A stretch of DNA of 64,000 bases. It comes from an uncultured Gammaproteobacteria bacterium (GTDB lineage Bacteria; Patescibacteriota; Microgenomatia; Levybacterales; UBA12049). A program made the position numbers and the translations under genes. Below the pieces are notes generated by a model. The model made no database searches. It was given only the letters and a program-made list of their open reading frames with translations, and was not told the origin of the DNA. This document shows positions 8,506 through 63,999 of the stretch, piece after piece; positions within the stretch are counted from its first letter, which is position 1, and every line of letters begins with the position of its first letter. The DNA lies in NCBI GenBank assembly GCA_964537895.1, contig CAZIDK010000001.1, positions 134,198-198,197 on the forward strand. The letters run 5' to 3'.

Positions 8506-8841
8506 ATGAAACAAAGAGACATTATTACATTACTGATACCATCATTCATCTTAATAGTAGCGTGGATTATTTTCAGTATTTATCATAGCTCTGTAACCTC
8601 GACTATACCGCCCGCTACAAACATCCAGATATCCCCGATAACGCCTGCCTTTGATATGGATGTGATATCTAAATTAAAACAAAGACAAAAAGTTACACCT
8701 CTTTATGAAGGGCAAGCTATTGCTTCCCCAACGCCAACGCCGGGGTTTCCAAATATTTTCTCGTCTTCTTTATCCGCTTCTCAAATAACCGGCTCTAGTA
8801 ATGCTCCTCAAGGCTCGCCGGGAGGAAGTCTGTTGCCATGA
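8506..8841 (+). CDS. small membrane protein with Pro-rich tail
   Basis: 111 aa with an N-terminal TM (IITLLIPSFILIVAWIIFSIY). It is translationally coupled to the next gene (ATGA overlap). Confidence 0.4.
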   Translation: MKQRDIITLLIPSFILIVAWIIFSIYHSSVTSTIPPATNIQISPITPAFDMDVISKLKQRQKVTPLYEGQAIASPTPTPGFPNIFSSSLSASQITGSSNAPQGSPGGSLLP

Positions 8842-15841: not shown

Positions 15842-17716
15842 GTGGTATCATTATACGGTATGAGGCAAGATTTTCTCAAGGACTTGAATAAGGAACAGCT
15901 CCAGGCAGTGCTTCAAAAAAATGGTCCGATGATAATATTAGCCGGAGCAGGTAGCGGCAAAACAAGGGTTTTAACCTATAAAGTTATCTATTTAATTTCA
16001 GAAGGGATAAGTCCTTTCAACATTCTCATGGTAACTTTTACTAATAAAGCCAGTAAAGAAATGAAAGAAAGAATGCAAAAGTTTTTTAAAAAAGGTGACA
16101 AACAGGTTTCCGAACTTCCGTCAATATCTACTTTTCATGCGCTTTGTGCAAAAATATTAAGAATTGAAGGTAAATACATTGGGATCCCAAATAATTTCTT
16201 AATATACGATAGTCAAGATCAAAAAGACACAATAAAAGAAGCCTTTAATCTTTTAGGGCTATCTCTAAAAGAGTACAAACCTTCATCTATTCTTGCAACC
16301 ATATCTCAAGCAAAAAACGAATTAATTGATGAAACACAATATCCGTCTTTTGCCAGAGGGCATTTTCAAGAAGTAGTTTCCAGAGTTTATGTAATTTATC
16401 AAAAAATCTTAAAGGAAAATGCTGCTTTGGATTTTGATGATTTAATTTTAAAAACAGTTGAGTTATTTAGAAAAAACCCGGATGTTTTGGAAAAATATCA
16501 AAATAAATTTAAGTATATTTTTGTAGATGAATATCAGGACACAAATCACGCACAATACCTGCTTACGAAACTGCTTAGCCGGAAATGGAACAATATTTGC
16601 GTCGTCGGCGATTTTTCTCAAAGCATATATAGTTTTAGAGGCGCAGATTTTTTAAACCTTGCAAAGTTTAAAGAGGATTTTAAAGATACAAAAACTTTTT
16701 CTCTTTCACAAAATTATAGATCAACTCAAAGAATTCTTGACGGGGCTTCTTCTGTTATATCTAAAAATAACGGTCATCCTGTTTTACAACTTTGGACCGA
16801 AAACAAAGCCGGAGAAGATATTTCAATTTTTGAAGCGTTAAATGAACAGCGTGAAGCGGAATTTACCTTAGAAGAAATGGAAAAAATTAAATATCAGAAT
16901 CCGAGTTTAAGATATTATGATTTCGCAATTCTTTACAGGACAAACGCGCAATCGAGGGCAATTGAGGAAGTTTTTATTCATAGCGGAATTCCATACATCC
17001 TAATCGGCGGAACAAGATTTTACGAAAGAAAAGAAGTCAAAGATGTGCTTTCTTATTTAAGAGTTATTGCAAATCCCAAAGACAAAATTTCTTTAAAAAG
17101 ATTAGAAAAATTAGGCAAAGGAAAATTTGTTAAATTCCTGGATTTTCAAAAAACTTTAGATGAAAAAAATATAAGTAGTGATACGACAATTTCTATTATG
17201 GATAGTGCTTTAAAAGCAACAGATTATCTTTCTTTATACAACGCAAAAGACGGGGAAGATTTGGGAAGACTTGAAAATATCAAGGAGCTTCGTTCTGTTG
17301 CAATCTCCTATCCTAATCTTGGAGAGTTTTTAGAAAATGTATCTTTGGTTGAACAAGAATATATACCCGATCACATAAAAGACGAAAACGGCAAGAAAGA
17401 TGCAATAAATTTAATGACTTTGCATGCGGCTAAAGGTTTGGAGTTTCCTGTTGTTTTTATGGTAGGAATGGAAGAGGGACTTTTTCCGCATAGCAGGAGC
17501 ATGATGGATAAAAATGAACTTGAAGAAGAAAGAAGACTCTGTTATGTTGGGATGACAAGAGCTAAAGAAAAACTCTTTTTAACCTATTCAAGAAAAAGGC
17601 TTTTCTTCGGACAAAAAACGACAAATATTGTGTCTAGATTTATACTGGAACTTCCGGAAGGAGTGTTGGAGAAAAGCTTAAATCGGATACGGATTGACGT
17701 TCCTGAATATTTATGA
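15842..17716 (+). CDS. UvrD/PcrA-family ATP-dependent DNA helicase
   Basis: GAGSGKTRVLT Walker A, FVDEYQDTN Walker B, helicase motifs through the Q-rich and VGMTRAK motif VI regions. The likely start is Met-7 (15860). Confidence 0.9.
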   Translation: MVSLYGMRQDFLKDLNKEQLQAVLQKNGPMIILAGAGSGKTRVLTYKVIYLISEGISPFNILMVTFTNKASKEMKERMQKFFKKGDKQVSELPSISTFHALCAKILRIEGKYIGIPNNFLIYDSQDQKDTIKEAFNLLGLSLKEYKPSSILATISQAKNELIDETQYPSFARGHFQEVVSRVYVIYQKILKENAALDFDDLILKTVELFRKNPDVLEKYQNKFKYIFVDEYQDTNHAQYLLTKLLSRKWNNICVVGDFSQSIYSFRGADFLNLAKFKEDFKDTKTFSLSQNYRSTQRILDGASSVISKNNGHPVLQLWTENKAGEDISIFEALNEQREAEFTLEEMEKIKYQNPSLRYYDFAILYRTNAQSRAIEEVFIHSGIPYILIGGTRFYERKEVKDVLSYLRVIANPKDKISLKRLEKLGKGKFVKFLDFQKTLDEKNISSDTTISIMDSALKATDYLSLYNAKDGEDLGRLENIKELRSVAISYPNLGEFLENVSLVEQEYIPDHIKDENGKKDAINLMTLHAAKGLEFPVVFMVGMEEGLFPHSRSMMDKNELEEERRLCYVGMTRAKEKLFLTYSRKRLFFGQKTTNIVSRFILELPEGVLEKSLNRIRIDVPEYL

Positions 17717-26254: not shown

Positions 26255-26510
26255 TCCGCGGTAGCTCAACGGTAGAGCAGGAAACTGTAAAATAATGCAG
26301 CCCTCAATGGAAATGTTGAGGAGAAAAACTGGGCTAATTCGGGGAAACCCCTAGGGGCAATCCCGAGCTAAATCTCGCAAGAGTAAATGTGTAGAGACTA
26401 TATACCCAGGACCTAACTCGCAAGATATGGTCAAGAGATAGTCCACGCTTCGATGAAAGTCGGGGATAAGTGTAATTTCAAGGTTCTAGGTTCGAATCCT
26501 AGCCGCGGAG
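26255..26510 (+). tRNA. tRNA gene interrupted in the anticodon loop by a probable group I intron of about 184 nt; anticodon UGU (Thr) or GUA (Tyr) depending on intron boundary
   Basis: A 7-bp acceptor stem pairs tccgcgg (26255-61) with ccgcgga (26503-09). There is a D arm gctc/gagc. The T arm is ctagg-TTCGAAT-cctag (26486-26502). Between the 5' anticodon-stem half (ggaaa|ct, ends in U at 26286) and the 3' exon lies about 184 nt ending in G (26470). The insert carries group-I-like elements (...gactata..., aagatatggtc...gatagtcc). There is no encoded CCA. Confidence 0.6.
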
Positions 26511-26514
26511 CAGA

Positions 26515-40568: not shown

Positions 40569-40574
40569 ATTTAT

Positions 40575-40640
40575 TTAGCTACTAGCCATTAGCCTCTAGC
40601 ATCTAGCCATTAGTTAACTAGTTGCTAGTTGCTCGTTGCT
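40575..40640. repeat. CTAG-rich intergenic repeat with ttgctag/ttgctcg heptad tandem (ruvB-ruvA spacer)
   Basis: gctaCTAGccattagcctCTAGcatCTAGccattagttaaCTAGttgCTAGttgctcgttgCTAGttgctcg. It shares the 25-nt core tagccattagttaactagttgctag with 41232..41290. Confidence 0.7.
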
Positions 40641-41226
40641 AGTTGCTCGTTGCTCGTCCTAACGCTTTCAGTGCCAGTTTTATTTTTTCATCCAATGTTA
40701 GTCCTTGGGTTTTTATTTCCCTAACAGTTTTTTGCGCTTCCCCTACCGAAAATCCGAAATTTTTAAGCGCCTGGACAACTTCGGCATTTTCCAGCAAGTC
40801 CTTGCCTGATAAATCCAAATCTGTGCCCGCTCCCATTTTATTTTTAAGCTCAATTATAATTTTCTGGGCATTTTTTGTGCCTAAGCGCGGAACAGAAGTA
40901 AAAAACGATACGTCTCCTTTAATTATTGCCTCGATTATGTCTTTTCTCTCTCCAAACGAGAAAATATTTAAAGCGGTTTTAGGCCCAATCCCCGAAACCG
41001 TGATTAGTCCTTCAAAAAGTTTTAAGTCTTCAATTTCCAAAAAACCAAAAAGAGCAAGTTCGTCCTCGCGAACATAGGTATAGGTAAAAAGTTTAATTTT
41101 GTCTGCTTTTGAGAGTTTTGAATAAACACTGTCGGAAACTAAAACTTTGTAGCCGACTCCGTTAACATCAACATAAATAAAGGGTCTGTCCAGAAGTTCA
41201 ATGCTGCCTTTGAGGAATCCTATCAT
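40639..41226 (-). CDS. ruvA: Holliday junction DNA helicase RuvA
   Basis: MIGFLKGSIELLDRPFIYVDVNGVGYKV is the OB fold. Tandem HhH motifs (GIGPKTA) and the C-terminal domain III are present. Confidence 0.92.
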   Translation of the reverse strand: MIGFLKGSIELLDRPFIYVDVNGVGYKVLVSDSVYSKLSKADKIKLFTYTYVREDELALFGFLEIEDLKLFEGLITVSGIGPKTALNIFSFGERKDIIEAIIKGDVSFFTSVPRLGTKNAQKIIIELKNKMGAGTDLDLSGKDLLENAEVVQALKNFGFSVGEAQKTVREIKTQGLTLDEKIKLALKALGRATSN

Positions 41227-41231
41227 AGTTT

Positions 41232-41290
41232 TAGTAATTAGCCCTTAGCCTCTAGCCATTAGTTAACTAGTTGCTAGCGGCTAGTTGCTA
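41232..41290. repeat. CTAG-rich intergenic repeat, second copy upstream of ruvA
   Basis: taattagcccttagcctCTAGccattagttaaCTAGttgCTAGcggCTAGttgCTAGttaCTAGc. It is followed at 41330..41370 by a tandem heptamer (atttaag)x5. Confidence 0.7.
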
Positions 41291-41585
41291 GTTACTAGCA
41301 TTAAAAGGATTATAACACAAGCTATAGTAGGACTTTAGATTTAAGATTTAAGATTTAAGATTTAAGAATAAAGAGCGGTCTCTTTTAGTTTGCAATCCAA
41401 CAAAGAACGTTAAGTTTTTGCGATTGAGCGAATCAGGGGAATTCCTCAGATCGCGAAGCGAGATTGAGGAAGGGGTGAAATTACCCGATGAGCGAAAGAG
41501 TAAAAATAGTTCGGCTTGGCTTGCAAAAAGTTTTTGGGCGTCTTTTCCGAAAAAGACGCAAAGAGCGATTGCTTTCACAAAAAAT

Positions 41586-45859: not shown

Positions 45860-47161
45860 TTAAACCTCTATTAGTTTATAGCCTCTTGTTTTTATTGTTT
45901 GTATTTCGTAGTTATTGTCCTGGTTTTTTAATTTATTCCGCACCCTTGCAATAAGCTTATCTATCGCCCAATCCGATACACCCAACTCTTCTTCCTCCGG
46001 CCAAATTATTTCGATAATCTGTTCCCTTTCGCAAATCTTATCTTTATTTTCCAAAAGAAAGTTAAACAATAAATTTTCTTTTTTACTGAATTCATTATTT
46101 GCATCTTTCGAGCTTATATTTGTTTCTTTTTGTCTGACAAAATCCGCAAAAAGTTTACTGAAAACATAATTATTTGCGCCTATTGTTTTTATAAACCCGG
46201 TATTCCAAAGATATATTGATTTTCTTTTTTCTTCCGTCAAAATTTTCTCACTATTTGCTATTTTTAACAGTATTTTTTGGGCATTTTTGTCCAAACTTTC
46301 CCAGAGCTCTTCCGACTGAAGGTTAATTCTTTCATCTTTACTAAGGCCTAGGTAAAGTTTTTCTTTTGTTCTTATCGCTTCTTTTTTTTCGTGAAGAAAA
46401 ATAAGCGCCAGCTGAAGATATTGCGTATAACCATCAACCAATTCAAATAAATAATCTTCGAGATATTCAGAAAGAGGAACTCCAAAACGTTTTTTATAAC
46501 TTGTGAATATTGTTTTTACATCTTCTGTTTTTGCAGGGCTAATATAAATGTTTTTAAAAAATACCGTCCAAGAAGTCTTTGGAAAAGCCGAAGGCATAAG
46601 TTTTTTTAAAGGCTGGTAGCTGGTAAAAACAAAAGCAACTTGCTGGTTAGTTGACTTAATCCCTTCTAAATTTGCGAAAAACTCCGGAGTTACCGCGTCT
46701 TTCATTCGGTCAAACCTGACAAAAAAAATGGTTGGTAAATATCCTTGTTCCGTAATCTTTAGAAGCGAAAGACGAACGCTGTCTATTGTAAAAAATAAAT
46801 CCTGAAGCTGAATGCTTTCTAAAAATAAATTTCCGATTTGCTCTTTAATTTTTTCGTCAATTGGGTACTCCTCTACCGAATCTACAATTCTTTTTAAAGT
46901 TAGTGTCCAGAATGGTGCGATTTCGCACTCAACTAAATCATTAAGCTCTATGGGAATGAATAAATGTCTCCTGTAATCCTTTATGTAGGTTCCCGGGATG
47001 TCTTTATTGTTTAAAAAAAAGCGGAGGAAATTACTTATTCCCACCTTTTTCATTCCTATCAAAACAACTGCGTGTCTGTTTTTCAAGTGCTTGCCGAGTT
47101 CTTCCGACTCGTCTTGCCTAAAAGTTAAAGGATAATTTTCTTCTATTATGTTATGCGTCAT
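45860..47161 (-). CDS. regulator-like protein: N-terminal ATPase-like domain (degenerate P-loop) fused to C-terminal OmpR/PhoB-type winged-helix DNA-binding domain
   Basis: The C-terminus ...EREQIIEIIWPEEEELGVSDWAIDKLIARVRNKLKNQDNNYEIQTIKTRGYKLIEV matches trans_reg_C (W...D......R...D..I..LR.KL.......I.TVRG.GY.L). The N-terminus HAVVLIGMKKVGISNF is P-loop-like but lacks the Lys. Confidence 0.5.
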   Translation of the reverse strand: MTHNIIEENYPLTFRQDESEELGKHLKNRHAVVLIGMKKVGISNFLRFFLNNKDIPGTYIKDYRRHLFIPIELNDLVECEIAPFWTLTLKRIVDSVEEYPIDEKIKEQIGNLFLESIQLQDLFFTIDSVRLSLLKITEQGYLPTIFFVRFDRMKDAVTPEFFANLEGIKSTNQQVAFVFTSYQPLKKLMPSAFPKTSWTVFFKNIYISPAKTEDVKTIFTSYKKRFGVPLSEYLEDYLFELVDGYTQYLQLALIFLHEKKEAIRTKEKLYLGLSKDERINLQSEELWESLDKNAQKILLKIANSEKILTEEKRKSIYLWNTGFIKTIGANNYVFSKLFADFVRQKETNISSKDANNEFSKKENLLFNFLLENKDKICEREQIIEIIWPEEEELGVSDWAIDKLIARVRNKLKNQDNNYEIQTIKTRGYKLIEV

Positions 47162-52204: not shown

Positions 52205-52565
52205 TTCTTCTTTCCCAGGATTTTAAATCTGAAAGAAAAACTTCTTTGTTTTCAGATAAAACTTTTTCCTTTGTTTCAGCGGCAAGATTTTTTAACCACT
52301 CTTCTCTTTTTTTCTTATATTCTCCGACCTCAATTGAAACCCTTTTGAACTCGCCAAGCTTTCTGGCCAAACACAAAGACAAAATAAGCTGCAATGACTC
52401 AAGAGTATCACCATGATAGCCGATAACAATTCCGCTGTCTTCCGTGTTAAGATTTATTTCAATCGCCTCTTCTTTCTCCTTAACTTCAAAATCTCCCTGT
52501 ATTTCAAGCAGTTTTAAAAGCTCTTCCGTTGTGTCTTGCACGATTTTACTTTGTTTTTTGTCCAT
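52110..52565 (-). CDS. jag: Jag/KhpB-family RNA-binding protein (KH + R3H)
   Basis: VIGYHGDTLESLQLI is the KH-like GxxG region. The C-terminal R3H is LSDLKSWERRIVHLLLQ. It lies downstream of yidC as in the canonical operon. Confidence 0.8.
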   Translation of the reverse strand: MDKKQSKIVQDTTEELLKLLEIQGDFEVKEKEEAIEINLNTEDSGIVIGYHGDTLESLQLILSLCLARKLGEFKRVSIEVGEYKKKREEWLKNLAAETKEKVLSENKEVFLSDLKSWERRIVHLLLQNDQEVVSESIGEGKDRVLVVKPKN

Positions 52566-53373
52566 ATATTTTATTTTTCCACTCTTCCAGTCCGCCTAAC
52601 CCCGAAACTCTGTATTGCTGCATGATACCAAAAATCGTAAAAGTGTTCCAGTATAAAGATAGGCCAACGGGAAATGTGTATGAGAAAAAACCAATCATAA
52701 TGGGGAAGATATACATCGCCTGTGATTGAAAAACAGAAGCAAAATCATCATTTTTTTTCTTCTCGTCTTTTTTTACCAATCCTTCTTGAGCTTTGGGCTT
52801 ACTAAACATCATTTTTGACTGAATAAACTGAAACAGTGCTGTAAGTAAGGGAACTATTAAGATGATTGGCCCAACGCTTGTGATAATCTGGGAAGGGTTA
52901 CTCCCCAAGGAAACGCCAAAAAAATTCGGATCCCAAGCCTTGGTAAGTTTTAAAGCGTCAAAATAAACAATTTTATTAATTACGTTAGGCCCCAATTGAG
53001 CTATTTGCTGCAAAGCCGTATATAGCCCCCAAATGATTGGAAGCTGAATAATAACAGGCAGGCAGCCGGCAGCCGGATTAACGCCGTGCTCTTTGTATAA
53101 TTTCATTGTTTCCTGCTGGAGGGTTTTTGAATCTCCTTTGTGTCTATTCTTAAGATTTGTAATGTGCGGGTTTAAGTCCTGCATTTTCTTTGAAGCTTTA
53201 AGCTGAGATGCGGTTAGAGGGTACAAAACAAAACGGATGATTATTGTTAATATTATAATTGAAAAACCCAAAGCAAAAGGGAAGTTAACAAAAATTAAAC
53301 CTTTGTAAACGGCAACTAAAACGTTAATTATCGGCCAGACAAGAATAGTATTAAAAATTGAAGGATCTGTCAT
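52546..53373 (-). CDS. yidC: membrane protein insertase YidC/Oxa1 (short Gram-positive-type)
   Basis: RFVLYPLTASQLKASKKMQDLNP, the GCLPVIIQLPIIWGLY conserved TM2-3 region, and the C-terminal basic tail are present. Confidence 0.9.
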   Translation of the reverse strand: MTDPSIFNTILVWPIINVLVAVYKGLIFVNFPFALGFSIIILTIIIRFVLYPLTASQLKASKKMQDLNPHITNLKNRHKGDSKTLQQETMKLYKEHGVNPAAGCLPVIIQLPIIWGLYTALQQIAQLGPNVINKIVYFDALKLTKAWDPNFFGVSLGSNPSQIITSVGPIILIVPLLTALFQFIQSKMMFSKPKAQEGLVKKDEKKKNDDFASVFQSQAMYIFPIMIGFFSYTFPVGLSLYWNTFTIFGIMQQYRVSGLGGLEEWKNKIYGQKTK

Positions 53374-53376
53374 AGT

Positions 53377-53634
53377 TTATGCAATTTTATAGAACGGCTG
53401 ACATTTTAAAAGACGTGCCAATGAAAGCCGGGTACCTGTTAAAACACCTTTTTCTTTAATTGAAATTTTTGCGTATTCAGAGCAAGTTGGCGAAAATCTG
53501 CAGCAATTACTAACGCCAACAATACTTTTAATAATATAAGAAAAAACGTTTTTATAAAAGTCTATAAAAAATAAAATAGTTTTTTTCATTTTAATAATTT
53601 CCGTTTTCCCAATTCTCCCAAAGTTAATTCGCAA
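53377..53634 (-). CDS. yidD: membrane protein insertion efficiency factor YidD
   Basis: CRFSPTCSEYA...GTRLSLARLLKCQPF is the YidD signature. The likely start is the internal Met (MKKTILFF). Confidence 0.85.
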   Translation of the reverse strand: MRINFGRIGKTEIIKMKKTILFFIDFYKNVFSYIIKSIVGVSNCCRFSPTCSEYAKISIKEKGVLTGTRLSLARLLKCQPFYKIA

Positions 53635-53915
53635 ATCTCTTTTGTTGTTTTGCCCAGTATATTTTTTTTTAATATAAACAGCATATCATAGCCGGGTTTT
53701 ATTTTGTCAAAATTATCTTCGATACAAACCCTTATTTGTCTTTTAATTCTATTTCTTGCCGTTGCTCTTTTGTCAATTTTTTTTGAAACTACGAAACCAA
53801 ACCTGTTAAAAGATTTTTCATTTTTTGCAAGTCTTAAAACAAAAAATGGGGAAGTATAAAGATCTTCCTTATTAAACTTCGTTTCTTTTAGCAAACGGTA
53901 TTTTTTCTTAAGCAT
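53586..53915 (-). CDS. rnpA: ribonuclease P protein component
   Basis: The basic RNR-like motif ATARNRIKRQIR, and FGFVVSKK, are present. It lies downstream of rpmH. Confidence 0.88.
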   Translation of the reverse strand: MLKKKYRLLKETKFNKEDLYTSPFFVLRLAKNEKSFNRFGFVVSKKIDKRATARNRIKRQIRVCIEDNFDKIKPGYDMLFILKKNILGKTTKEICELTLGELGKRKLLK

Positions 53916-54194: not shown

Positions 54195-55547
54195 ATGGAA
54201 GAAAATAAAAAACTTTGGAGTAAAGTTTTGGGAGAAATTGAGATTGAGGTTTCAAAAGCAAATTTTCTAACGCTTTTTAAAAGAACCTCGCTTTTGTCTT
54301 TGGAAGGGAACTCTTTAACAATTGCCGCGCCTTCGGTTATGATTATTGATCTTTTACAAAGAAGGTTTTATGACGTTATTAAAAAATCTGTTGATAAACA
54401 TGTTGGAGTAAGTTCAAAAATAATTTTTGTCCCAAAAGTTTTAGCACCGGAAGAGCAAGCGGAAAAAAACGGCCCTCTTTTTGACGAAAGCGAAAAATCC
54501 CCGACAATTATTGGACACTTACCGCGGGTAAGGCCGGACTACACTTTTGAAAATCTAGCTGTTGCCTCAAGCAACCAATTAGCTTTTGTCAGCGCATCAA
54601 CCGTTGCCAAAAAACCAGGCATTGCATATAATCCTCTTTTTATTTATGGACCAACAGGAGTAGGAAAAACGCATCTAATGCAGGCTATTGCAAATGAAGT
54701 TTATCAAAAAAACCCAAACAAAAAAATAGTTTACACGACAAGCGAGGAATTCACAAATGAAGTGGTTGACGCAATAAGAACCAACAGCACGGCTCTTATG
54801 AAAAAAAGGTTTAGGAATATTGATCTTTTAATAATCGACGACATTCAGTTTATCGCGGGAAAAGAAAAGGTTCAGGAAGAACTTTTTCATACTTTCAATA
54901 TTTTGGTTGATAATCTGGCGCAAATCGTTCTTTCTTCCGACAGGCCCCCGTCGGAAATTAAAAAAGTAGAAAAAAGACTTTTATCGAGATTTTCCGGCGG
55001 GTTAACCGTTGACATAGACACGCCTGATTTTGAATTAAGAACGGCAATCTTATTAATTAAGGCAAAAAAATACGGGTTTGACCTGCCAATAGAAGTTGCC
55101 AAAACAATTGCCGAAAAATCTCAAGACGCCAGAAGTCTTGAGGGGGTCTTATTAAGAATGGCAACAGAGGCCGAAACAAGGGGGATTAATATAACCGGCG
55201 ATTTGGTGCAGTCGGTTTTAAAAAGCACTCGCCAAGAAGATAGAGGGGTTTTCCACCCGGACGATATTATAAACAACATTTGCGCTTATTATAAAATCAA
55301 ACCAACACAGATAAAAAGCGCTAAAAGAGATGCTTCTTTGGTTAGGGCTAGACAGGTGGCAATGTATATTCTTAAAAAAGACCTTGAGTTAACCTATGTT
55401 GAGATTGGTAATATTTTAGGCGGTAGAGATCACACAACTATTATGCATGGTGTGGGAAAAGTGGAAAAAATGGTTGATACGGGTGGGTTTTCCCAGGAAC
55501 TTTTGGGGATAAAAAATTATGACGGGGGAAAACTTGCGGGTTATTAA
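54195..55547 (+). CDS. dnaA: chromosomal replication initiator DnaA
   Basis: The AAA+ module has GPTGVGKTHL, DDIQF and a sensor region. The C-terminal DNA-binding domain is ...VARARQVAMYIL...IGNILGGRDHTTIMHG. Confidence 0.97.
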   Translation: MEENKKLWSKVLGEIEIEVSKANFLTLFKRTSLLSLEGNSLTIAAPSVMIIDLLQRRFYDVIKKSVDKHVGVSSKIIFVPKVLAPEEQAEKNGPLFDESEKSPTIIGHLPRVRPDYTFENLAVASSNQLAFVSASTVAKKPGIAYNPLFIYGPTGVGKTHLMQAIANEVYQKNPNKKIVYTTSEEFTNEVVDAIRTNSTALMKKRFRNIDLLIIDDIQFIAGKEKVQEELFHTFNILVDNLAQIVLSSDRPPSEIKKVEKRLLSRFSGGLTVDIDTPDFELRTAILLIKAKKYGFDLPIEVAKTIAEKSQDARSLEGVLLRMATEAETRGINITGDLVQSVLKSTRQEDRGVFHPDDIINNICAYYKIKPTQIKSAKRDASLVRARQVAMYILKKDLELTYVEIGNILGGRDHTTIMHGVGKVEKMVDTGGFSQELLGIKNYDGGKLAGY

Positions 55548-55673
55548 GTTTTTGAAATTTTACACTTTTTCTAAACACTGTTATACACATTTTATAAACA
55601 TGTTTCTTGGCCGTGCCGCCTTGCTTTTTTCCACTTTTCCAGATACACTACTACTACAACAAGTATCTATATT

Positions 55674-56783
55674 ATGAAAGCCACTTTTCTTACAGAGAAT
55701 CTACAACGGTGTTTATTTTTTTTAAACCATGCTGTTTCCGGAAACAGCCAGTTGGAAATCTTATCGACGTTTTTAATCATCGCCGAAAAGGGACGGCTCA
55801 TAATTAACGCAACCGATTTGGAAATAGGTATATCCTCATCTGTCCCCGCAAACATAGAGGAAGAAGGAATGGCTTGTGTCCCCGCAAAAACATTTTTTGA
55901 ACTCATAAACAACGTCTCAGAAGAAAAAATATCCATAGAAACCAGGGAACAAAACCTTGTTCTAAAAGGGAAAAAAATAAAAATGGCTTTTCGGACAATG
56001 CCTTACGAAGACTTCCCTAAGCTTTATGAGGACAAAGGCGAGGAGGTTGCAGTCTTTAAAAAAGAAACAGTGCTGGATGATTTTAACAAGGTTGTTTTTG
56101 CCGCAAGTCAAGATAGCGGCAGACCAGCGCTTTCAGGCATTTTAATAAAAAAAGAAAAAGACGGCTTTTTAATAGTGGCAACGGATGGATACAGGCTTTC
56201 TTTAAAAAACAACGTTGTGATAAAAACTAAAAAAGGAGAGGGCGTGGACGAGCTTCTTCTTTCGGCAAGGGTTATAAAAGAGCTTGTTTCAATAAAGCAA
56301 AACGAAGACATCTCTCTTTTTGTTTCAGGCAAAAATAACCAAGCGATTTTTGTACAAGGCGAAACAACACTGGTCGGAAGATTAATAGAGGCAGAGTACC
56401 CAAGTTACGAAAAAATTATCCCAACCGATTTTGGAACAAAAGCGGAATTTGATAAGGACGAAATGCAAAAAGCCATAAAACTTTGTTCGGTTTTTGCAAG
56501 GGAAACGGCGAACATAGTTAAATTTTCCGTTAAAAAGGATAAAATAATTGTTTCCGCAAACACGCCTTCGGTTGGGGAGAATACGGTCGAGGTTGACGCG
56601 AAAGTAATAGGCGAGGAAAACGAAATTGCCTTTAATGCCCGCTATTTACTGGATCTTTTTTCAAACATCAATGAGGAAAACATGTCTTTCGAAATGACCG
56701 GCCCGCTAAATCCCGGGGTTTTTAAAATTACAGGCGACAACTCCTTTTTTCACTTAATAATGCCCATTAGAGTGCAGGGCTAA
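55674..56783 (+). CDS. dnaN: DNA polymerase III beta sliding clamp
   Basis: 369 aa with a three-domain clamp fold. MKATFLTENL...LEILSTFLIIAEKGRLIINATDLEIGIS is the typical N-terminus. Confidence 0.93.
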   Translation: MKATFLTENLQRCLFFLNHAVSGNSQLEILSTFLIIAEKGRLIINATDLEIGISSSVPANIEEEGMACVPAKTFFELINNVSEEKISIETREQNLVLKGKKIKMAFRTMPYEDFPKLYEDKGEEVAVFKKETVLDDFNKVVFAASQDSGRPALSGILIKKEKDGFLIVATDGYRLSLKNNVVIKTKKGEGVDELLLSARVIKELVSIKQNEDISLFVSGKNNQAIFVQGETTLVGRLIEAEYPSYEKIIPTDFGTKAEFDKDEMQKAIKLCSVFARETANIVKFSVKKDKIIVSANTPSVGENTVEVDAKVIGEENEIAFNARYLLDLFSNINEENMSFEMTGPLNPGVFKITGDNSFFHLIMPIRVQG

Positions 56784-58385: not shown

Positions 58386-58439
58386 GACTTAATAATAGCA
58401 GAAACTAATTGCTGGCAACTAAATACCAGCAACTAGTAA

Positions 58440-60383
58440 CTAGCTACTAGCGTCTAGTTTAGGAATGGGGTTTTCTGTTGGGAGGATGATAGTTGTCGCT
58501 GGCGGAGCAACCGGCTCATTGACCGGCGTCATAGGTGGTTCAACAGGGGCCTGTGTCATCAACCGCGCTCTTTCGGCTTCATCCTCCTGCATTTTAAGAA
58601 TTTCTTGCGGGTTAGATGTAATCATTGTGTGTTCAAAGGGTGCAGCTATAACTTTCATTGCAACATGGCTTTGTCCTGCAAAAAACAACCCTTCGCCGAT
58701 ATCCGCCGATAGCAAAAGTTCTTTCTCTCCCTGCGAGAGATAAAAGGTTTGCGAAACCAAGTCTACTTCGGACGGGCTTTGTTTTAAAAGCATTTGTATC
58801 GAAGAGTTTGATAAAATGGCTTTGCCATAGTCGGTGGACAGGAAATCCTGCACGTCTTGGGTTGCCGTTGTTAGCGCAAGATAATATTTGCGTGACCTTT
58901 TGGCAATGCTATAAACAAAAGAAGCAGAATCGGGATATTTCATAATATACCAGGCCTCATCAAGAATAAGAAGGCGCTTTTTAAGTGTTTTTCTAATCCT
59001 TGTCCAAACAAAATCTAAAACAATGTGCATGGCAACCGGCCTTAGCTCTTCCTCAAGCGCCTTGATATTAAAAACCGTTAGCAAATTCTTAAGATCAAAA
59101 TTGGATTGCTGGTTAAATATTCCGCTTAAGCTTCCTTTAATGAATTTCTCAAGTCTTAACGCCAGCTCTCTGGCGGCCGGGTCTTCCATGCCGAGCAATA
59201 CCTTGTATAAATCTTCCATTAAAGGAGGCTGTTTCTTTTGCGTTGTGGGATCGGCAGTTATGCCTTTTTGCCGGTATGTTTCGACCAGTGCCCTGTCTAA
59301 AATTGCATCGTGAGCGGCATCCAAATCGCCCATAATAATTCTTAAAAGTCCGTGTAAAGAAAGAATTTTAAGACCAAGCTCATTTTCGCCTTCTTCGTAA
59401 AGCCCGGACATGTCAAAAGGGTTTATCCTGACCGGATCAGACGCGGTAAAGGAAACATGCTCGCCTCCCAGAGTTTTTGCCAGGGTTTCATATTCTCCTT
59501 CCGGGTCGATAATGATAACTTCCGTTCCAAACATAAACTGCCTTATTGCTTCAAGTTTAATTAAATAAGATTTTCCCGCTCCGGATTTGCCCAAAACCAC
59601 TTCGTTGGCGTTTTCTAAGGAGAATCTGTCGAAAATAATTAAAGAACCGTTTTGCTCGTTAATTCCGTACATTACGCCTTTATCTTGCGCCAGCATTGCC
59701 GAAGTAAACGGAAAAGTTGAAGCAAGGGATGTTGTGTCCATGTTCCTAGTTATAAAAAGCCTGTCTTGTCCCAAGGGAATGCTGGATTTAAATCCGTCTT
59801 CCATTTGCAGGGTTGCGGTTTTTGAGAGCATAAGTATTGAGCCAAGCGTTGTGCTTAGTCTTTTCGAGGCTTCGTCTAAGTCTTTAACGTTTTCGGCAGA
59901 AAGCGTTATGTAGAGACTGTATTGAAAAAACCTTTCAACGCCTTTTGCCAGCTCTTCCTGAACGGATAAAGCGTCATCTAAAGATGCTTTTACCTTAGGG
60001 TCAATCAGCTGTCCTTCCTCAACTTGGGATGAAATCGTTGCTTCCATTTCGGCAATTTTTCTGCGCAAATCCGACAAAACATCGGGAGATGAGGTTGGAT
60101 AGATAAACATAGAAATATTCATAGAGTGGTCAAAGTCAATTATGGGCTGAAGCCAGTTTGCCGATACGTAGCGCGGATAGCCAACGACGAAAACTGTTTT
60201 ATAAAACTTTTCCCCTACTCTTATAAAATGAAAATCAACTTCAACAGAAGACGGCGCAATAATATCCGTTAAGGAAACCATTCCTTTTTCAAGTTTGGCA
60301 ATACTTGGCGAAACAGTCTGCTGCTGCTTTGCTGGCAGCTGTGTTTGGCTGACTTGGGTTTTGTTTTTTTTGAAAAGATTCAT
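58440..60383 (-). CDS. VirB4/TrbE/CagE-family type IV secretion ATPase (C-terminal ATPase part)
   Basis: Walker A GKSGAGKS, Walker B RLLILDEAWY, and a FYLSQGE/ATQ sensor region are present. 647 aa is short for VirB4. The N-domain appears to be encoded by the overlapping upstream ORF. Confidence 0.75.
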   Translation of the reverse strand: MNLFKKNKTQVSQTQLPAKQQQTVSPSIAKLEKGMVSLTDIIAPSSVEVDFHFIRVGEKFYKTVFVVGYPRYVSANWLQPIIDFDHSMNISMFIYPTSSPDVLSDLRRKIAEMEATISSQVEEGQLIDPKVKASLDDALSVQEELAKGVERFFQYSLYITLSAENVKDLDEASKRLSTTLGSILMLSKTATLQMEDGFKSSIPLGQDRLFITRNMDTTSLASTFPFTSAMLAQDKGVMYGINEQNGSLIIFDRFSLENANEVVLGKSGAGKSYLIKLEAIRQFMFGTEVIIIDPEGEYETLAKTLGGEHVSFTASDPVRINPFDMSGLYEEGENELGLKILSLHGLLRIIMGDLDAAHDAILDRALVETYRQKGITADPTTQKKQPPLMEDLYKVLLGMEDPAARELALRLEKFIKGSLSGIFNQQSNFDLKNLLTVFNIKALEEELRPVAMHIVLDFVWTRIRKTLKKRLLILDEAWYIMKYPDSASFVYSIAKRSRKYYLALTTATQDVQDFLSTDYGKAILSNSSIQMLLKQSPSEVDLVSQTFYLSQGEKELLLSADIGEGLFFAGQSHVAMKVIAAPFEHTMITSNPQEILKMQEDEAERARLMTQAPVEPPMTPVNEPVAPPATTIILPTENPIPKLDASS

Positions 60384-61051
60384 TTTGCCCCCTCGTTTTT
60401 AACTATCGGTGATTTTATGTTGTCTGTTGCCTGGCCTGTTTCAATTAAGGTATCGTTGTATATTTCATAAAATAATTTAATTAACTCTTCTTTTTCCAGA
60501 GTTCTGGCTCGCAAATTAAGTCTTCCGAGCTGGGAGTGCAGGGACTCTGCTTTTGAATGAAGAGCGGATTTAGCGTTTTGGACAAAAGCGAAATCATCCA
60601 CCGAGCTTTTCTTCTTAACACTGCCCGCCGCAGCGCCGATGCCCTTTTCAAGGTAGGAAAAAGGAACAGCAATATAGAATTTTTTATCCAAAACGGTATT
60701 TACCTTAATTAATTCCTGAATAAAATCTTTGTAAAGCTTTATCTGCTCCGCAAGCATCTGATTTTGTGTTTTTCCTGCTTCAGTATCAAGAAGCTTAAGA
60801 TAGGAGGTTATGTCCAGCTTTTTACTTCTGATAAGAATTTGAATCGGGAAGGAGAGGGAGTTAAGAAGGGCGGCGTAAGAGAAAATTTTTGAATCCTGTT
60901 CTTCTGCGGACAAAAGCGCAAAGTTTGTAGCGGTTACTTCAATAACCAAGCAGGCGTTACCATTGGTTAAAACAACAACGTCATCGATAACGTCCTGTAT
61001 TTCTGTGAATTTCTGCGTTGTTGCGTTGATTTTTCGGGCAGAACTTTTCAT
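60380..61051 (-). CDS. VirB4 N-terminal-domain-like protein (apparent split or frameshifted virB4 5' part)
   Basis: 223 aa, overlapping the ATPase ORF by ATGA. IQDVIDDVVVLTNGNACLVIEVTATNFALLSAEEQDSKIFSYAALLNSLSFPIQILIRSKKLD resembles the N-terminal region of Gram-positive-type VirB4 proteins (I.D.i.....g.....l.i.piNF.L.s.eEq...i..f...L.sl..piQi.....k.d). Confidence 0.45.
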   Translation of the reverse strand: MKSSARKINATTQKFTEIQDVIDDVVVLTNGNACLVIEVTATNFALLSAEEQDSKIFSYAALLNSLSFPIQILIRSKKLDITSYLKLLDTEAGKTQNQMLAEQIKLYKDFIQELIKVNTVLDKKFYIAVPFSYLEKGIGAAAGSVKKKSSVDDFAFVQNAKSALHSKAESLHSQLGRLNLRARTLEKEELIKLFYEIYNDTLIETGQATDNIKSPIVKNEGAK

Positions 61052-61168
61052 AAATAATTATTAATTTTCAATTTCTAATTTCTATTGGATTTTCAAGCTT
61101 CCAATCTTTGATTGCATCATTTTCATATCAAAAATAAAATTTTAAATATAAAATACACATAGCAAAAA

Positions 61169-61540
61169 TTAAATATTATTCCCTTTTCCTTTTAAAGTCG
61201 GGATACTTGAACCGAATATTTTGGAAATTTCATCAAGTTCTGCCAAAATTGAATTTGCTTCATCCTTTTCACCATTATCTGTATCCCGCAATATTGAAAC
61301 CCACACCTTGCTTTCATTTGCCGACTTTAAGCTATGGTGAAAATAGTTTGTGTAATCCTTCTTTGAACTTGCAGACTGCCCTTCTATATAGTTTCCCAAA
61401 ATACTCGTCCCGCTTCTTATTAATTGGTCTCCAATAATCTTTGTTGTTTGAGATTTTTTGCAATTCTCAACAAATTTAATAATCCTTAAGATAAGACCGT
61501 ATAAACGTTTTTTAAATTCTCTTTCCCTATCGTTTTTCAT
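61169..61540 (-). CDS. four-helix-bundle protein (PF05635 / 23S rRNA intervening-sequence protein family)
   Basis: GDQLIRSGTSILGNYIEGQSASSKKDYTNYFHHSLKSANESKVW matches the family core (QL.RSA.SI..NIAEG......D...F...A.GS..E...). Confidence 0.7.
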   Translation of the reverse strand: MKNDREREFKKRLYGLILRIIKFVENCKKSQTTKIIGDQLIRSGTSILGNYIEGQSASSKKDYTNYFHHSLKSANESKVWVSILRDTDNGEKDEANSILAELDEISKIFGSSIPTLKGKGNNI

Positions 61541-61584
61541 ATTTGATATGTATTTTTAATATTTTATATTTAATCTTTTAAATG

Positions 61585-62805
61585 CTAGCTAAACAGACTT
61601 CTCCTTAACTCTTCTCTTGTGTCAACGGAGAGCACTTCTATCGGCAGTATTATTTGTCCGGTTACGCTAAATTGAATAACATCAAACTTGTTTTCTCCCT
61701 TAGTGTCCTCAAATTCTATAGTGTAAGTACCGTTATTTAGCGGCGTTGCGGAGGCGAATTGTCCTAAAGGATTTGTTTTGAATGCTCGAACAGGGTTACT
61801 GTCGGCATCTTTTATTTCAACAAGAATATTTCCCAAGGGATTGCCTCGCGGGTCTTTTACAATGCCTGTAACCAGGTTTGGAAATTCGGGCGCAATTGGA
61901 AGGCCTATGCTTTTTCCTAAGCCTTGGGGAATGCTTCTTATATTTTGAGTTTCTTTTTTGGGCGCTTTGGCAATAGAGGCGGTATAAACGTTTTTGTTTT
62001 CGTTTGTAAGCTTTTTCTGAAGTTCTGCGATTTGTCCTTCAAGCACTTGTTTTTGCTTGGCAGTATCTGTTAGGAGATTTTCAAGTTCAAGTACCTTTAA
62101 GTGCGCCTGTTTATATTCTTCAGATCCCGACTGCGCTGATTCCTGCGTCTTTGCTTGCACCAACTGCTGCTGTAAAATTTGCGCCTCTTTTCGTAAAATT
62201 TCTTCCTCTTCGGAAGGCATTTCTGCTTCTTTTGCGACCGGAGCCGGTTGATTTGGCGGAGCTTGGTTAGCAAAAGCATGAGGCGTAGCGGGCTGGGGTA
62301 CTTGTAATTGCGGGGCAGGAGTGTTTGCCTGGAGACTAGCTAACGATTCGAAGAAAACCATTTCTTTTTGGTCAAGCTGGTTTTTTGATCTTTTGGGCAG
62401 TGAATTTAAATAGTCTTTTAATGCCTGTCCGGAAAGAGACGCAGTTTGGGCCGCCTGTTGGGCCCGCTGTTGTTTTTGAGATTGAGCAAGATGCGGTATA
62501 GGAAGCCAAAGGTGCCCCCCTGTCTTTTGATAAATAAACTGCGTCGGATAGAAGACGGCTTTAAAAAAATTAGAAATCATTAAATCCATAGGTCTCCCCT
62601 CAATGGGCAAAAAAGCAAAGCCGGCGCCTAAAAGAATTGATATTCCGGCAAGAGGAATCTTGACGATTGGAATTAAAGGAAGAACGAAAATAATCCAGCC
62701 TATTACCACCCCTGCCGCAAGATAGGCAAATTGTTTAATCGTCATGTCGCCAATCAGCTTAAACTGAAAACCGGTAATATCTTGAGGTATAGGGTGATTT
62801 TCCAT
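61585..62805 (-). CDS. PrgI/VirB3-like N-terminal membrane domain fused to coiled-coil and C-terminal beta-sandwich domain
   Basis: The N-terminus IPQDITGFQFKLIGDMTIKQFAYLAAGVVIGWIIFV matches the PrgI-family motif (f.G.T.RQ......a). Two TM helices are followed by a Gln/Glu-rich coiled coil (QILQQQLVQAKTQESAQ...ELQKKL). The C-terminus GIVKDPRGNPLGNILVEIKD...YTIEFED is a carboxypeptidase-regulatory-like / Ig-like beta sandwich. Confidence 0.5.
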   Translation of the reverse strand: MENHPIPQDITGFQFKLIGDMTIKQFAYLAAGVVIGWIIFVLPLIPIVKIPLAGISILLGAGFAFLPIEGRPMDLMISNFFKAVFYPTQFIYQKTGGHLWLPIPHLAQSQKQQRAQQAAQTASLSGQALKDYLNSLPKRSKNQLDQKEMVFFESLASLQANTPAPQLQVPQPATPHAFANQAPPNQPAPVAKEAEMPSEEEEILRKEAQILQQQLVQAKTQESAQSGSEEYKQAHLKVLELENLLTDTAKQKQVLEGQIAELQKKLTNENKNVYTASIAKAPKKETQNIRSIPQGLGKSIGLPIAPEFPNLVTGIVKDPRGNPLGNILVEIKDADSNPVRAFKTNPLGQFASATPLNNGTYTIEFEDTKGENKFDVIQFSVTGQIILPIEVLSVDTREELRRSLFS

Positions 62806-62838
62806 AGTTCAGTTACTAGACACTAGTTAGATTAGTTA

Positions 62839-63225
62839 CTAGTTGCTAGTGTCCTCCTTTGTTAATTTTTTCATTTTTCCTATCATAACATTTAACATTT
62901 TAGAAACTTCCAACAAGAGATTCTCGCTTGGTTTAAATAATGTCTCTTTTGCCATAATTAATTCTTTTGAAATAATAAGCTGCGTTTCAAGCTCTAGGGC
63001 AGAGCCATAGGCAAAGGAATAAAACTGAACAGATGATCTAAAAGATCTTCGGCCGAATGCCTCTGCAATGTTTGATGGAATTGATACCGCCGCTCTTCTC
63101 ATTTGAGAAGTAATGCCAAAAACTTCTGATTTAGGAAAATTTTCGGTTAAAAGAAAGATTTCTTTTACTAATTTCATTCCTTTCTGCCAAACGATGAGTT
63201 CTTTATAAGATTTAATAATTGCCAT
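62839..63225 (-). CDS. four-helix-bundle protein (PF05635 family), second copy
   Basis: YKELIVWQKGMKLVKEIFLLTENFPKSEVFGITSQMRRAAVSIPSNIAEAFGRRSFRSSVQFYSFAYGSALELETQLIISKEL is an almost canonical match to the family. Confidence 0.8.
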   Translation of the reverse strand: MAIIKSYKELIVWQKGMKLVKEIFLLTENFPKSEVFGITSQMRRAAVSIPSNIAEAFGRRSFRSSVQFYSFAYGSALELETQLIISKELIMAKETLFKPSENLLLEVSKMLNVMIGKMKKLTKEDTSN

Positions 63226-63388
63226 GGGATTTCGTAACTAGTATCTAATAACTAGTAACTGATTATACTAGCTTATAACGTGAAAAATTACGTTGCAAGA
63301 TTATCAAACTAGGTGCAAACCGCGTCAGACGCGGTCAAAGGAAAATATTAATTTCAGCCTGCCCCGTGAAAATTATCCTTCGGAGAAA

Positions 63389-63700
63389 TTATTTGCAGGT
63401 ATCAAATCCAAACGTAGTGATGCAGTCGGCCCCAGTTATTGTTCCTATTAACTTAATTATTGCAAAAGCCAAAAGAATAACGATTAGTCCCGCTACTGCA
63501 TAGGTTAAAGTTTTCCTTGCTCCCTCGACTTGTTTTGGGTCGCCGCCAGAGGTTAAGAATTTTATTCCTGCCAGTATGATGAAAAAAACAGCAACAATCC
63601 CGGCTAAACCGGCAGCCCAGTAAACAATATTACTAAAAACAGCAGGTAAGCAGCTAAGAGTTGCAACTCCATCTTGAACACAGCTTCCCCAGTCCTTCAT
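63389..63700 (-). CDS. VirB2/TrbC-like pilin candidate (small two-TM protein with paired cysteines)
   Basis: 103 aa. A TM hairpin IVAVFFIILAGIKFLTSGGDPKQVEGARKTLTYAVAGLIVILLAFAIIKLI is present. Cys pairs sit at both ends (C..C near the N-terminus, C...C at the C-terminus). It is paralogous to 63748..63999. Confidence 0.45.
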   Translation of the reverse strand: MKDWGSCVQDGVATLSCLPAVFSNIVYWAAGLAGIVAVFFIILAGIKFLTSGGDPKQVEGARKTLTYAVAGLIVILLAFAIIKLIGTITGADCITTFGFDTCK

Positions 63701-63747: not shown

Positions 63748-63999
63748 TTATTCGCAGGTGGGGTTAGTTAAGCTAGGAATACAGAAATTACCGGATAAGG
63801 GGCTGCCGACTCCCAGAAAAGTAAAGACAACATTTATAATAAAGAAAGCTGCAACTACAATTACTAAGCCGACTATCGCAGCGACAATGTGTTTTCTGGC
63901 GGCATCAACGTTTGCTTTGTCCCCGCCGGAAATTACCCATTTAATTCCTCCGTAGATAAGGAAAATCAAGGAAATTAAAATACCGACAACTAAAAGCAA
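63748..63999 (-). CDS. VirB2/TrbC-like pilin candidate, paralogue; 5' end may lie beyond the window edge
   Basis: 83 aa as drawn. It has the same GIKWVISGGDKANVDAARKHIVAAIVGLVIVVAAFFII hairpin and a C-terminal CIPSLTNPTCE. Its first codon is at the last in-frame position of the window. Confidence 0.4.
   Translation of the reverse strand: MLLVVGILISLIFLIYGGIKWVISGGDKANVDAARKHIVAAIVGLVIVVAAFFIINVVFTFLGVGSPLSGNFCIPSLTNPTCE

Follow-up and report, generated by a model that had tools for sequence, protein, structure and literature searches.

Some bacterial 23S rRNA genes, among them those of Leptospira, Coxiella burnetii, Xanthomonas and Brucella, are interrupted by intervening sequences (IVSs) bearing an open reading frame (ORF), known as the S23p ORF. 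To our knowledge, PF05635, the protein family concerned, has been without a function since rRNA IVSs were described around 1990. The IVS of Coxiella burnetii measures 428 nt and is regarded as selfish; its inverted repeats build a stem whose loop contains the S23p ORF and which RNase III cleaves, and immediately 5′ of the ATG stand tandem GACAGAT heptamers that vary in number (PMC4990558). In bacteria of the candidate phyla radiation (CPR), 23S_rRNA_IVP ORFs are likewise found in rRNA insertions (PMC11270868). Tandem heptamers are also known from intergenic regions, as in the cyanobacterial short tandemly repeated repetitive (STRR)-type sequences, the TAACTGA repeats of Beggiatoaceae, cyanobacteria and Bacteroidetes, and the paired GGGAATC of Xanthomonas; such arrays often end just before a start codon and are sometimes arranged in convergent pairs that could fold into stem-loops (PMC4679880, PMC4692102). 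Here we analyse a stretch of 64,000 nucleotides (hereafter the window; assembly GCA_964537895.1, contig CAZIDK010000001.1, positions 134,198 to 198,197), deposited as an uncultured Gammaproteobacteria bacterium and placed by GTDB in the Levybacterales, in which two genes for PF05635-type four-helix-bundle (4HB) proteins, H1 and H2, flank a PrgI-family gene of an operon resembling a type IV secretion system (T4SS). We consider it reasonably likely that each of these genes is the cargo of a mobile IVS-type cassette whose arms pair and are processed by RNase III, and that the T4SS operon is a hot spot for such cassettes. That the genes belong to mobile cassettes of this type rather than being T4SS components is highly probable; the processing of the stems by RNase III, proposed by analogy with the rRNA IVSs, is a more tentative suggestion, on which our doubts slightly outweigh our confidence.

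The window's locus (W) was compared with a set of 80 species-level loci around relatives of its VirB4 gene (related loci are designated L001 and so on), presence counts being based on 79 of them, and 4HB genes were detected in these loci by means of a local profile built from the related loci. The original prediction, made from the letters of the window, had placed two divergent PF05635-type genes of 123 and 128 aa around the PrgI-like gene, and both the coordinates and the family scores agree with it. With curated cut-offs of 33.8 bits for PF05635 and 24 bits for TIGR02436, H1 scored 122.4 and 112.4 bits, and H2 65.5 and 80.5 bits, respectively. H1 matches by sequence the solved Xanthomonas protein of PDB 2GSC (E = 6e-19), while the AlphaFold2 model of H2 (pLDDT 90.5) consists of four helices (residues 2-25, 31-55, 60-86 and 92-117) for which Foldseek returned 2RLD and 2GSC as top matches (TM-score 0.75-0.87), followed by Avd (4DWL, 8UB7). 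Both fit the family's format of one domain of about 110-130 aa folded as an up-down four-helix bundle. A homopentameric toroid has been reported for XCC0516 (cited in PMC4990558). Both H1 and H2 are maintained by purifying selection, with ratios of nonsynonymous to synonymous substitution (dN/dS) of 0.09-0.24 for H1 against its orthologues and of 0.07 for H2 against its counterpart in L022. In single-sequence phmmer searches of the window ORFs, H1 and H2 each matched only itself, and the profile search found no further 4HB genes in the 64-kb window. Database searches for PF05635-type proteins gave 2282 and more than 7800 matches, and PADLOC returned no defence-system match.

Each 4HB gene forms the loop of a cassette of ~460 nt (461 and 466 nt) that is closed by inverted heptamer arms and reads 5′ arm, ORF, 3′ arm, with the arms abutting the start and stop codons. 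In window coordinates, the parts of the two cassettes and the adjoining spacer are as follows:

62839-63225 (-): 4HB gene H1, 128 aa, cargo of cassette 1 (PF05635, TIGR02436)
63232-63262 (-): 5′ arm of cassette 1, made of tandem heptamers of the TTACTAG type, its end lying 6-7 nt 5′ of the H1 ATG
62806-62838 (-): 3′ arm of cassette 1, filling the whole spacer from the H1 stop to the PrgI ATG
61169-61540 (-): 4HB gene H2, 123 aa, cargo of cassette 2 (PF05635, TIGR02436)
61541-61584 (-): 5′ arm of cassette 2, A/T-rich TAAAATA-type heptamers, directly after the PrgI stop
61124-61168 (-): 3′ arm of cassette 2, defined by the inverted repeat and the whole-cassette fold
61052-61123 (-): extra 72-nt spacer with TAATTTC heptamers, between cassette 2 and the ATG of the VirB4 N-terminal ORF (VirB4-N)

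In cassette 1, the inverted repeats I5, I9 and I10 connect 62809-62849 with 63235-63271, the arm-arm duplex has a predicted energy of -30.8 to -37.6 kcal/mol, and Tandem Repeats Finder (TRF) reports a period of 7 at 62811-62850, corresponding to the 3′ arm. In cassette 2, the inverted repeat I1 connects 61127-61168 with 61533-61574 and I2 gives further support to the 5′ arm, where TRF finds a period of 7 at 61535-61580 and the pairing extends across the H2 ATG. When the whole cassettes were folded as RNA, the arm stem enclosed the ORF in the minimum free energy and the centroid structures of both; the predicted arm stems, of 20-30 bp, would in principle be long enough for RNase III. The 72-nt spacer beside cassette 2 has a period of 7 at 61062-61084 (TRF), is missing from the L022 copy and is without structure (fold z = +0.8); it may be a remnant of an older heptamer array.

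The same design emerges from the 4HB genes of the related loci when their flanks are compared with those of other genes of the same loci. With flanks of 96 nt, the median duplex energy is -34.3 kcal/mol for 43 4HB genes versus -22.9 kcal/mol for 1120 other genes (p = 5e-13), and over 60 nt on each side the lag-7 periodicity is 0.43-0.46 versus 0.29 (p ~ 1e-11); the lag-14 signal is also sharp in the 4HB flanks but not in those of other genes. Both the heptamer copy number and the unit itself vary from cassette to cassette (TTACTAG, CGAAACC, CAAAGTT, GATAGAA and others), and yet in 10 of 18 cases the unit of the 3′ arm is the reverse complement of that of the 5′ arm, where 7.5% would be expected by chance, which indicates that complementarity is maintained while the sequence changes. 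The original prediction had described CTAG-rich repeats in the spacers and had asked whether they bound the copies. Such repeats do surround H1, with two CTAG in the 33-nt spacer 62806-62838 and three in 63226-63275, or ~60 per kb as against 1.17 per kb window-wide, and they bound the copies of one subfamily; the H2 spacers hold no CTAG and have A/T-rich heptamer arrays instead, and what bounds the copies in general is inverted tandem heptamers.

The movement of these cassettes can be read from comparisons with their surroundings. Between W and L022, cassette 2 is 86% identical in the ORF, 93% in the 5′ arm and 91% in the 3′ arm, whereas the host genes PrgI and VirB4-N share 63% and 62% nucleotide identity; for cassette 1, W and L026 share 86-88% identity, as compared with 58% for the pilin and 63% for PrgI. 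Synonymous divergence (dS) amounts to 0.4-0.8 in the cassettes and is saturated or 2.7-2.8 in the flanks, and the lower value of the cassettes is not a saturation artefact of composition; their GC content is 33% versus 40-43% for the flanks. Because their identity is higher and their dS lower than those of the flanks, the cassettes are younger than the surrounding genes. The closest relative, L001, whose flanks are ~90% identical, has H1 and lacks H2, and its PrgI/VirB4-N junction contains a different, ORF-less CTAG hairpin in place of cassette 2. In an alignment of eight copies from unrelated sites, homology stops ~45 nt beyond the ORF on each side, so that the moving unit comprises arm, ORF and arm, ~460 nt in total; the arms of cassette 2 are conserved among copies in unrelated sites, and the cassette boundaries are uncertain by a few bases because the ends are A/T-rich.

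The related loci contain 44 4HB genes, 43 of which lie on the operon strand (sense) and all of which are upstream of the VirB4 ATPase gene. Countable copies number 42 in the 570 kb upstream of VirB4 and none in the 574 kb downstream (p ~ 1e-13); a random distribution with respect to T4SS loci, which the original prediction had named as the outcome that would speak against it, is therefore not what these loci display. At least one copy is present in 25 of the 79 loci, the same operon being found without any in 54, and the 4HB genes occupy more than 20 different neighbour combinations. The empty sites are tight: in 63 of 73 loci fewer than 10 nt separate the stop codon of PrgI from the start codon of VirB4-N, and the two codons often overlap as TAATG. 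Where this junction is occupied, it holds 4HB genes of three subfamilies (W and L022, L032, L054), a GxxExxY gene (L037) or ORF-less heptamer hairpins (L001, L047, L050). An H1-type copy resides in the promoter/PrgI slot of six loci (W, L001, L022, L026, L032, L054), and many cassette-free promoter/PrgI sites in relatives have CTAG palindromes similar to the ORF-less hairpins of the window. Single slots hold several 4HB protein subfamilies, and one subfamily spans several slots.

A second type of cargo was observed in L037, where the GxxExxY-family gene (8616-9032(+); TIGR04256, 104.8 bits; PD-(D/E)XK-like) is bracketed by inverted TCCGAAT-type heptamers of its own.

Outside the T4SS operon, relatives of H2 with proteins 68-73% identical are found at unrelated sites, always in sense and in tight gaps: pheS/pheT, phosphoribosyltransferase/Pth, glycerate kinase (MOFRL)/transketolase, PMT/glycosyltransferase, a Wzy cluster and unknown genes near SecA. 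An independent sample, obtained by scanning metagenome contigs with H2 alone, yielded 85 4HB genes, of which 13 (15%, in 9 loci) lie at most 4 kb from a T4SS gene and 72 (85%) have no T4SS gene within 4 kb. As the former share is well above the ~1% of the genome that the operon represents, the T4SS operon constitutes a genuine hot spot, though not the only home of these genes. The metagenome copies, some of which are inserted between VirB4-N and the C-terminal VirB4 ORF (VirB4-C), have a co-oriented downstream neighbour in 66 of 71 cases (93% versus a background of 76%) and median gaps to their neighbours of 40 and 54.5 nt, about one arm, and they replicate the arm signal (-23.1 versus -16.6 kcal/mol, p = 2e-14). 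The relatives of the H1 type are more locus-bound, being at the T4SS locus in three of four long contigs. No rRNA was detected by Rfam around 14 metagenome 4HB copies, which gives no direct link from operons to rRNA. On cyanobacterial plasmids, homologues that are 40-47% identical lie in sense at cas10/cmr3, cas6/cas4, parA/parB and after a coupling-protein fragment, and complementary heptamer arms accompany four of six cyanobacterial copies, e.g., GGGAACA three times upstream and TGTTCCC six times downstream; no complementary arm was found within 110 nt of the Nostoc PCC 7120 copy. The copy at cas6/cas4 on plasmid pPg_01 of Pseudanabaena galeata (L099:1-1500, 1861-1965) is an exception to the rule of inverted arms, with direct arrays of AAAGCTA (~15 times) upstream and AAAGCCA (~9 times) downstream.

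Of the two roles that the original prediction had entertained, that of a selfish cassette inserting between T4SS genes is upheld by the precise empty sites, the mixed subfamilies at one junction, the greater likeness of cassettes than of flanks and the end of homology ~45 nt outside the ORF at unrelated sites. The other, an adaptor or regulator of the T4SS, is not supported: 54 of 79 operons have no 4HB gene and 85% of the metagenome relatives lie elsewhere. The T4SS association looks like a hot spot of insertion or retention and not like a functional partnership.

The closest parallel to these cassettes is found in the ORF-bearing rRNA IVSs. Both have a PF05635 protein as cargo, both are similar in size (428 nt in Coxiella versus 461 and 466 nt here), and in both a sense ORF occupies the loop of a long stem of terminal inverted repeats; as in the Coxiella IVS, tandem heptamers of variable copy number directly precede the ATG. 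Their distribution is equally sporadic among close relatives, here 25 of 79 loci, and rRNA IVSs are regarded as selfish or mobile (PMC4990558). On the other hand, rRNA IVSs reside in helix 25 or 45 of the 23S rRNA, whereas the cassettes described here are located between protein-coding genes of mRNA operons, and Rfam detected no rRNA in the window, so that the location inside a 23S (or 16S) rRNA gene, in place of a helix tip, by which an IVS is recognized does not apply. Moreover, the Coxiella ORF is decaying and probably untranslated, in contrast to the intact ORFs under purifying selection found here, and cleavage by RNase III, established for the rRNA IVS, where excision is without religation, is only presumed for these cassettes.

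The accessory variability determinant (Avd) of the diversity-generating retroelement (DGR) is likewise a small and basic protein tied to a genetic element, and it binds nucleic acid. The 4HB proteins share its homologous four-helix-bundle fold and are, because of this homology, probably nucleic-acid binders as well; their ligand would perhaps be the element's own stem or RNA, if the analogy extends that far. Unlike Avd systems, the cassettes come without a reverse transcriptase, template or variable repeats. The known intergenic heptamer repeats resemble the arms in forming arrays of a 7-nt unit, and TAACTGA-like units occur in the arms; they differ in that the arrays here are complementary pairs that enclose a gene or ORF-less hairpins at gene junctions. 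A term search of the two papers on these repeats (PMC4679880, PMC4692102) found no mention of S23p or 4HB proteins, or of GxxExxY, together with repeats. Integron cassettes and MITEs (miniature transposable elements with inverted repeats) are similar in being small, promoterless and placed in one orientation between genes, with a hairpin repeat and presence/absence polymorphism. In integron cassettes, however, a single attC lies at the 3′ end and the cassettes form an array at one attI site next to an intI integrase, whereas here repeats flank the ORF on both sides and the copies are scattered over many operons; no integrase was found among the proteins scanned. The arm sequences are not conserved across subfamilies, and no target-site duplication was seen. 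The protein family, the rRNA IVS elements and the intergenic heptamer repeats are thus each already known; a literature search that lacked most subscription journals and family notes found no paper joining heptamer-flanked 4HB genes outside rRNA with IVSs, nor one that reports such cassettes moving within operons.

The model that we favour is that a promoterless cassette of ~460 nt inserts in sense into the very short spacers between co-transcribed genes, in this locus into the promoter/PrgI and the PrgI/VirB4-N sites, and is transcribed by the host operon. The arms would then pair in the transcript into a stem of 20-30 bp, looping out the ORF and bringing back together neighbouring cistrons that, prior to the insertion, were translationally coupled or directly behind a promoter-like motif; the stem would be cut by RNase III, as in the rRNA IVS. 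What is observed comprises the cassette anatomy, the presence/absence polymorphism, the recent horizontal spread, the homes of close relatives outside the T4SS and the recurrence of the design in cyanobacteria. As to the preference for the stretch from the pilins through PrgI to VirB4-N, high transcription, maybe a property shared with rRNA operons, can be offered as a guess.

Several points weigh against this model. The ORFs scanned in and near the cassettes include no transposase, integrase or reverse transcriptase, and no target-site duplication was seen where cassette 2 and its relatives end. In about one third of the cassettes the arms are weak (z > -2), and because many arms are A/T-rich and of low complexity, their apparent complementarity is inflated. 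The stem is only weakly favoured in the sense over the antisense strand (-28.1 versus -26.5 kcal/mol, p = 0.037), with control genes being biased the opposite way (antisense stronger), and the arms may act as DNA hairpins rather than by pairing in RNA. A signature-motif search found no RNase III gene, which says little given that it covered ~1.4 Mb of fragments. Finally, the hot spot of 42 copies versus none, together with the concentration of the H1 type there, may reflect a locus-specific benefit.

The precise boundaries and single orientation of the cassettes, the ORF-less hairpins at the same kind of junction, a heptamer copy number that varies as it would with slippage on DNA, and the small advantage of the sense stem would also be accounted for if the arms worked at the DNA level, as hairpin or cruciform recombination sites (compare integron attC, the ends of IS200/IS605 and repetitive extragenic palindromic elements) recognized by an enzyme acting in trans. 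The cassette would still be mobile and selfish, with RNA pairing and RNase III becoming incidental. We regard this as unlikely, albeit worth serious consideration: the arms differ so widely between subfamilies that one sequence-specific recombinase cannot recognize them all, no recombinase was found nearby, and the strict sense orientation fits a dependence on host transcription. Furthermore, the only members studied experimentally, the rRNA IVSs, are processed as RNA by RNase III (PMC4990558). A role of the 4HB proteins as accessory components or regulators of the T4SS-like pilus, acting with PrgI, is in turn very improbable. Conserved co-occurrence and a fixed position, which a T4SS component should display, are not what was found, since the operon is intact without 4HB genes in 54 of 79 loci, their position varies over more than 20 slot types, and one and the same junction can hold a GxxExxY cargo or none. 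Close homologues in pheST, sugar-metabolism and glycosyltransferase operons and in cyanobacterial CRISPR and par operons, and the younger age of the cassettes relative to their neighbours, likewise argue against partnership, even though the co-orientation of the genes, purifying selection, the 42 copies upstream of VirB4 against none in an equal length downstream, the 15% of independently found relatives beside T4SS genes and the mostly T4SS-bound H1 type could all be cited in its favour.

Two further explanations find still less support. If the 4HB genes had belonged to the operon since ancient times, passed down vertically and repeatedly lost, the H1-type copies in the same promoter/PrgI slot of six loci would be easily understood; yet empty sites with overlapping stop and start codons (TAATG) would require an exact deletion each time, the cassettes are far more alike than their flanks, the PrgI/VirB4-N junction is home to three unrelated subfamilies, and the 94%-identical relative L001 has a different ORF-less hairpin there in place of cassette 2, all of which makes this history highly improbable. 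DGRs are common in CPR bacteria, and the fold resembles Avd (4DWL, 8UB7), with H1 giving a weak match to bAvd; hence the 4HB proteins might be thought of as Avd accessory proteins of a DGR that diversifies pilins or PrgI. This proposal is barely credible, as the matches to bAvd (24.9 bits, cut-off 40) and NF033474 (18.6 bits, cut-off 80) are both below threshold, no reverse transcriptase was found among window ORFs of at least 300 aa or most shorter ORFs near the locus, and relatives sit in housekeeping operons.

The window belongs to the chromosome of a Candidatus Levybacteria (Microgenomates, CPR) bacterium. The operon that hosts the cassettes runs on the minus strand in the order pilin, pilin, H1, PrgI, H2, VirB4-N, VirB4 ATPase, and the best relatives of its VirB4 gene are from metagenome-assembled genomes of Levybacteria. 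Its host features are:

63748-63999 and 63389-63700 (-): two T4SS_pilin genes, upstream of H1 and PrgI
63270-63308 (-): promoter-like motif upstream of PrgI, TTTGACC..TTTGATAATCTTGCA..ATTTTTCACGTTATA, highly conserved
61585-62805 (-): PrgI-family membrane protein gene, 406 aa, between H1 and H2
60380-61051 (-): VirB4 N-terminal ORF, 223 aa, matching NF045975 positions 97-279
58440-60383 (-): VirB4-like ATPase C-terminal ORF, 647 aa (NF045971, 392.6 bits)

The PrgI-family protein scores 33 bits against PF12666 (cut-off 27), has a C-terminal CarboxypepD_reg-like domain, and its gene is kept in 76 of the 80 related loci. The two halves of VirB4 (58440-61051(-)) are separate ORFs that overlap by 4 nt, a split that is not a frameshift error because it is kept across Levybacteria (76 of 80 related loci), and in some metagenome loci (L118, L153, L156) a 4HB cassette lies between them. 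In relatives, the conserved backbone consists of a regulator, three to five pilins, PrgI, VirB4-N, VirB4-C, a variable stretch, dnaN and dnaA. In the window, dnaA, dnaN, rnpA and yidC (54195-56783(+), 52546-53915(-)) stand directly beside the T4SS-like operon; as this arrangement is kept in relatives, the pilus/T4SS locus is a core chromosomal cluster and not an integrated conjugative element, and a replication origin is presumed to lie next to it. The other genes of the window are housekeeping ones, such as those for GroEL, LepA, MurJ, UvrD, RpoD, DnaG, PurA/B and RuvABC.

The motif TTTGACC..TTTGATAATCTTGCA..ATTTTTCACGTTATA recurs in nearly all related loci; in those that are cassette-free it stands 8-12 nt 5′ of the PrgI ATG, and cassette 1 is placed between it and the PrgI ATG. 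It probably serves the PrgI-VirB4 operon as promoter or operator; in a scan for sigma-70 and terminator consensus sequences, counts were no higher than in shuffled sequences and the motif was not singled out. A second box, TTTTCAC, is found ~60 nt upstream. Candidates for a protein binding the motif are a regulator whose C-terminal part is a winged helix of the OmpR type (window 45860-47161) and, in relatives, the gene of family '11' that heads the pilin cluster. Between the last pilin gene and the motif there is a G+C-rich hairpin, GACCGCGTCTGACGCGGTTTG, at 63316-63336(-), and L056 and L058 have similar ones; it is perhaps a terminator or attenuator that keeps pilin transcription apart from that of PrgI-VirB4.

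Three hairpins without an ORF, all of them CTAG-rich, were also found in the window:

58386-58452 (-): ORF-less hairpin of CTAGTTn units between the VirB4 ATPase gene and the gene that comes next (-31.3 kcal/mol, z = -6.66; TRF period 7)
40569-40660 (-): ORF-less heptamer hairpin at the ruvA/ruvB junction (-34 kcal/mol, z = -6.48)
41227-41300 (-): ORF-less heptamer hairpin at the ruvC/ruvA junction (-27.4 kcal/mol, z = -3.96)

The pair on either side of ruvA are direct copies of each other. Elsewhere in the window, a tRNA gene at 26255-26511(+) has its anticodon loop interrupted by a group I intron of ~184 nt (Rfam RF00028, 67 bits, 26279-26465). With default settings ARAGORN reports no tRNA in the 64-kb window, and with its intron option it calls tRNA-Asn(GTT) at 26255-26511, an identity that is uncertain because crude manual excisions of the intron gave tRNA-His. 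A match to Rfam RF03531, a Clostridioides difficile small RNA 'included into helicase gene' (71 bits, 17497-17595(+)), falls within the UvrD-like ORF 15842-17716 and probably represents conserved helicase coding sequence rather than a small RNA.

The mobile-cassette reading turns a 'hypothetical protein' into a testable system, given that the same element is found in ordinary operons, is younger than its surroundings and encodes a protein under purifying selection, and that filled sites, empty sites, several cargo types and ORF-less derivatives are available for comparison. It also implies that function prediction based on gene neighbourhood would wrongly tie 4HB proteins to the T4SS, CRISPR-Cas, partition systems and tRNA synthetases. 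More speculatively, and with considerable reservation on our part, heptamer-hairpin cassettes might form a widespread and unrecognized class of transposase-free mobile elements in at least CPR bacteria and cyanobacteria, with 4HB genes, GxxExxY genes or nothing as cargo, with the rRNA IVS as a special case, and with the Avd-like 4HB protein acting on stem RNA or DNA as a factor for the mobility or maintenance of its own element. If this were true, hitch-hiking would account for the 'associations' reported between PF05635 and CRISPR or other operons. Such cassettes could also be the source of some of the bacterial intergenic heptamer repeats.

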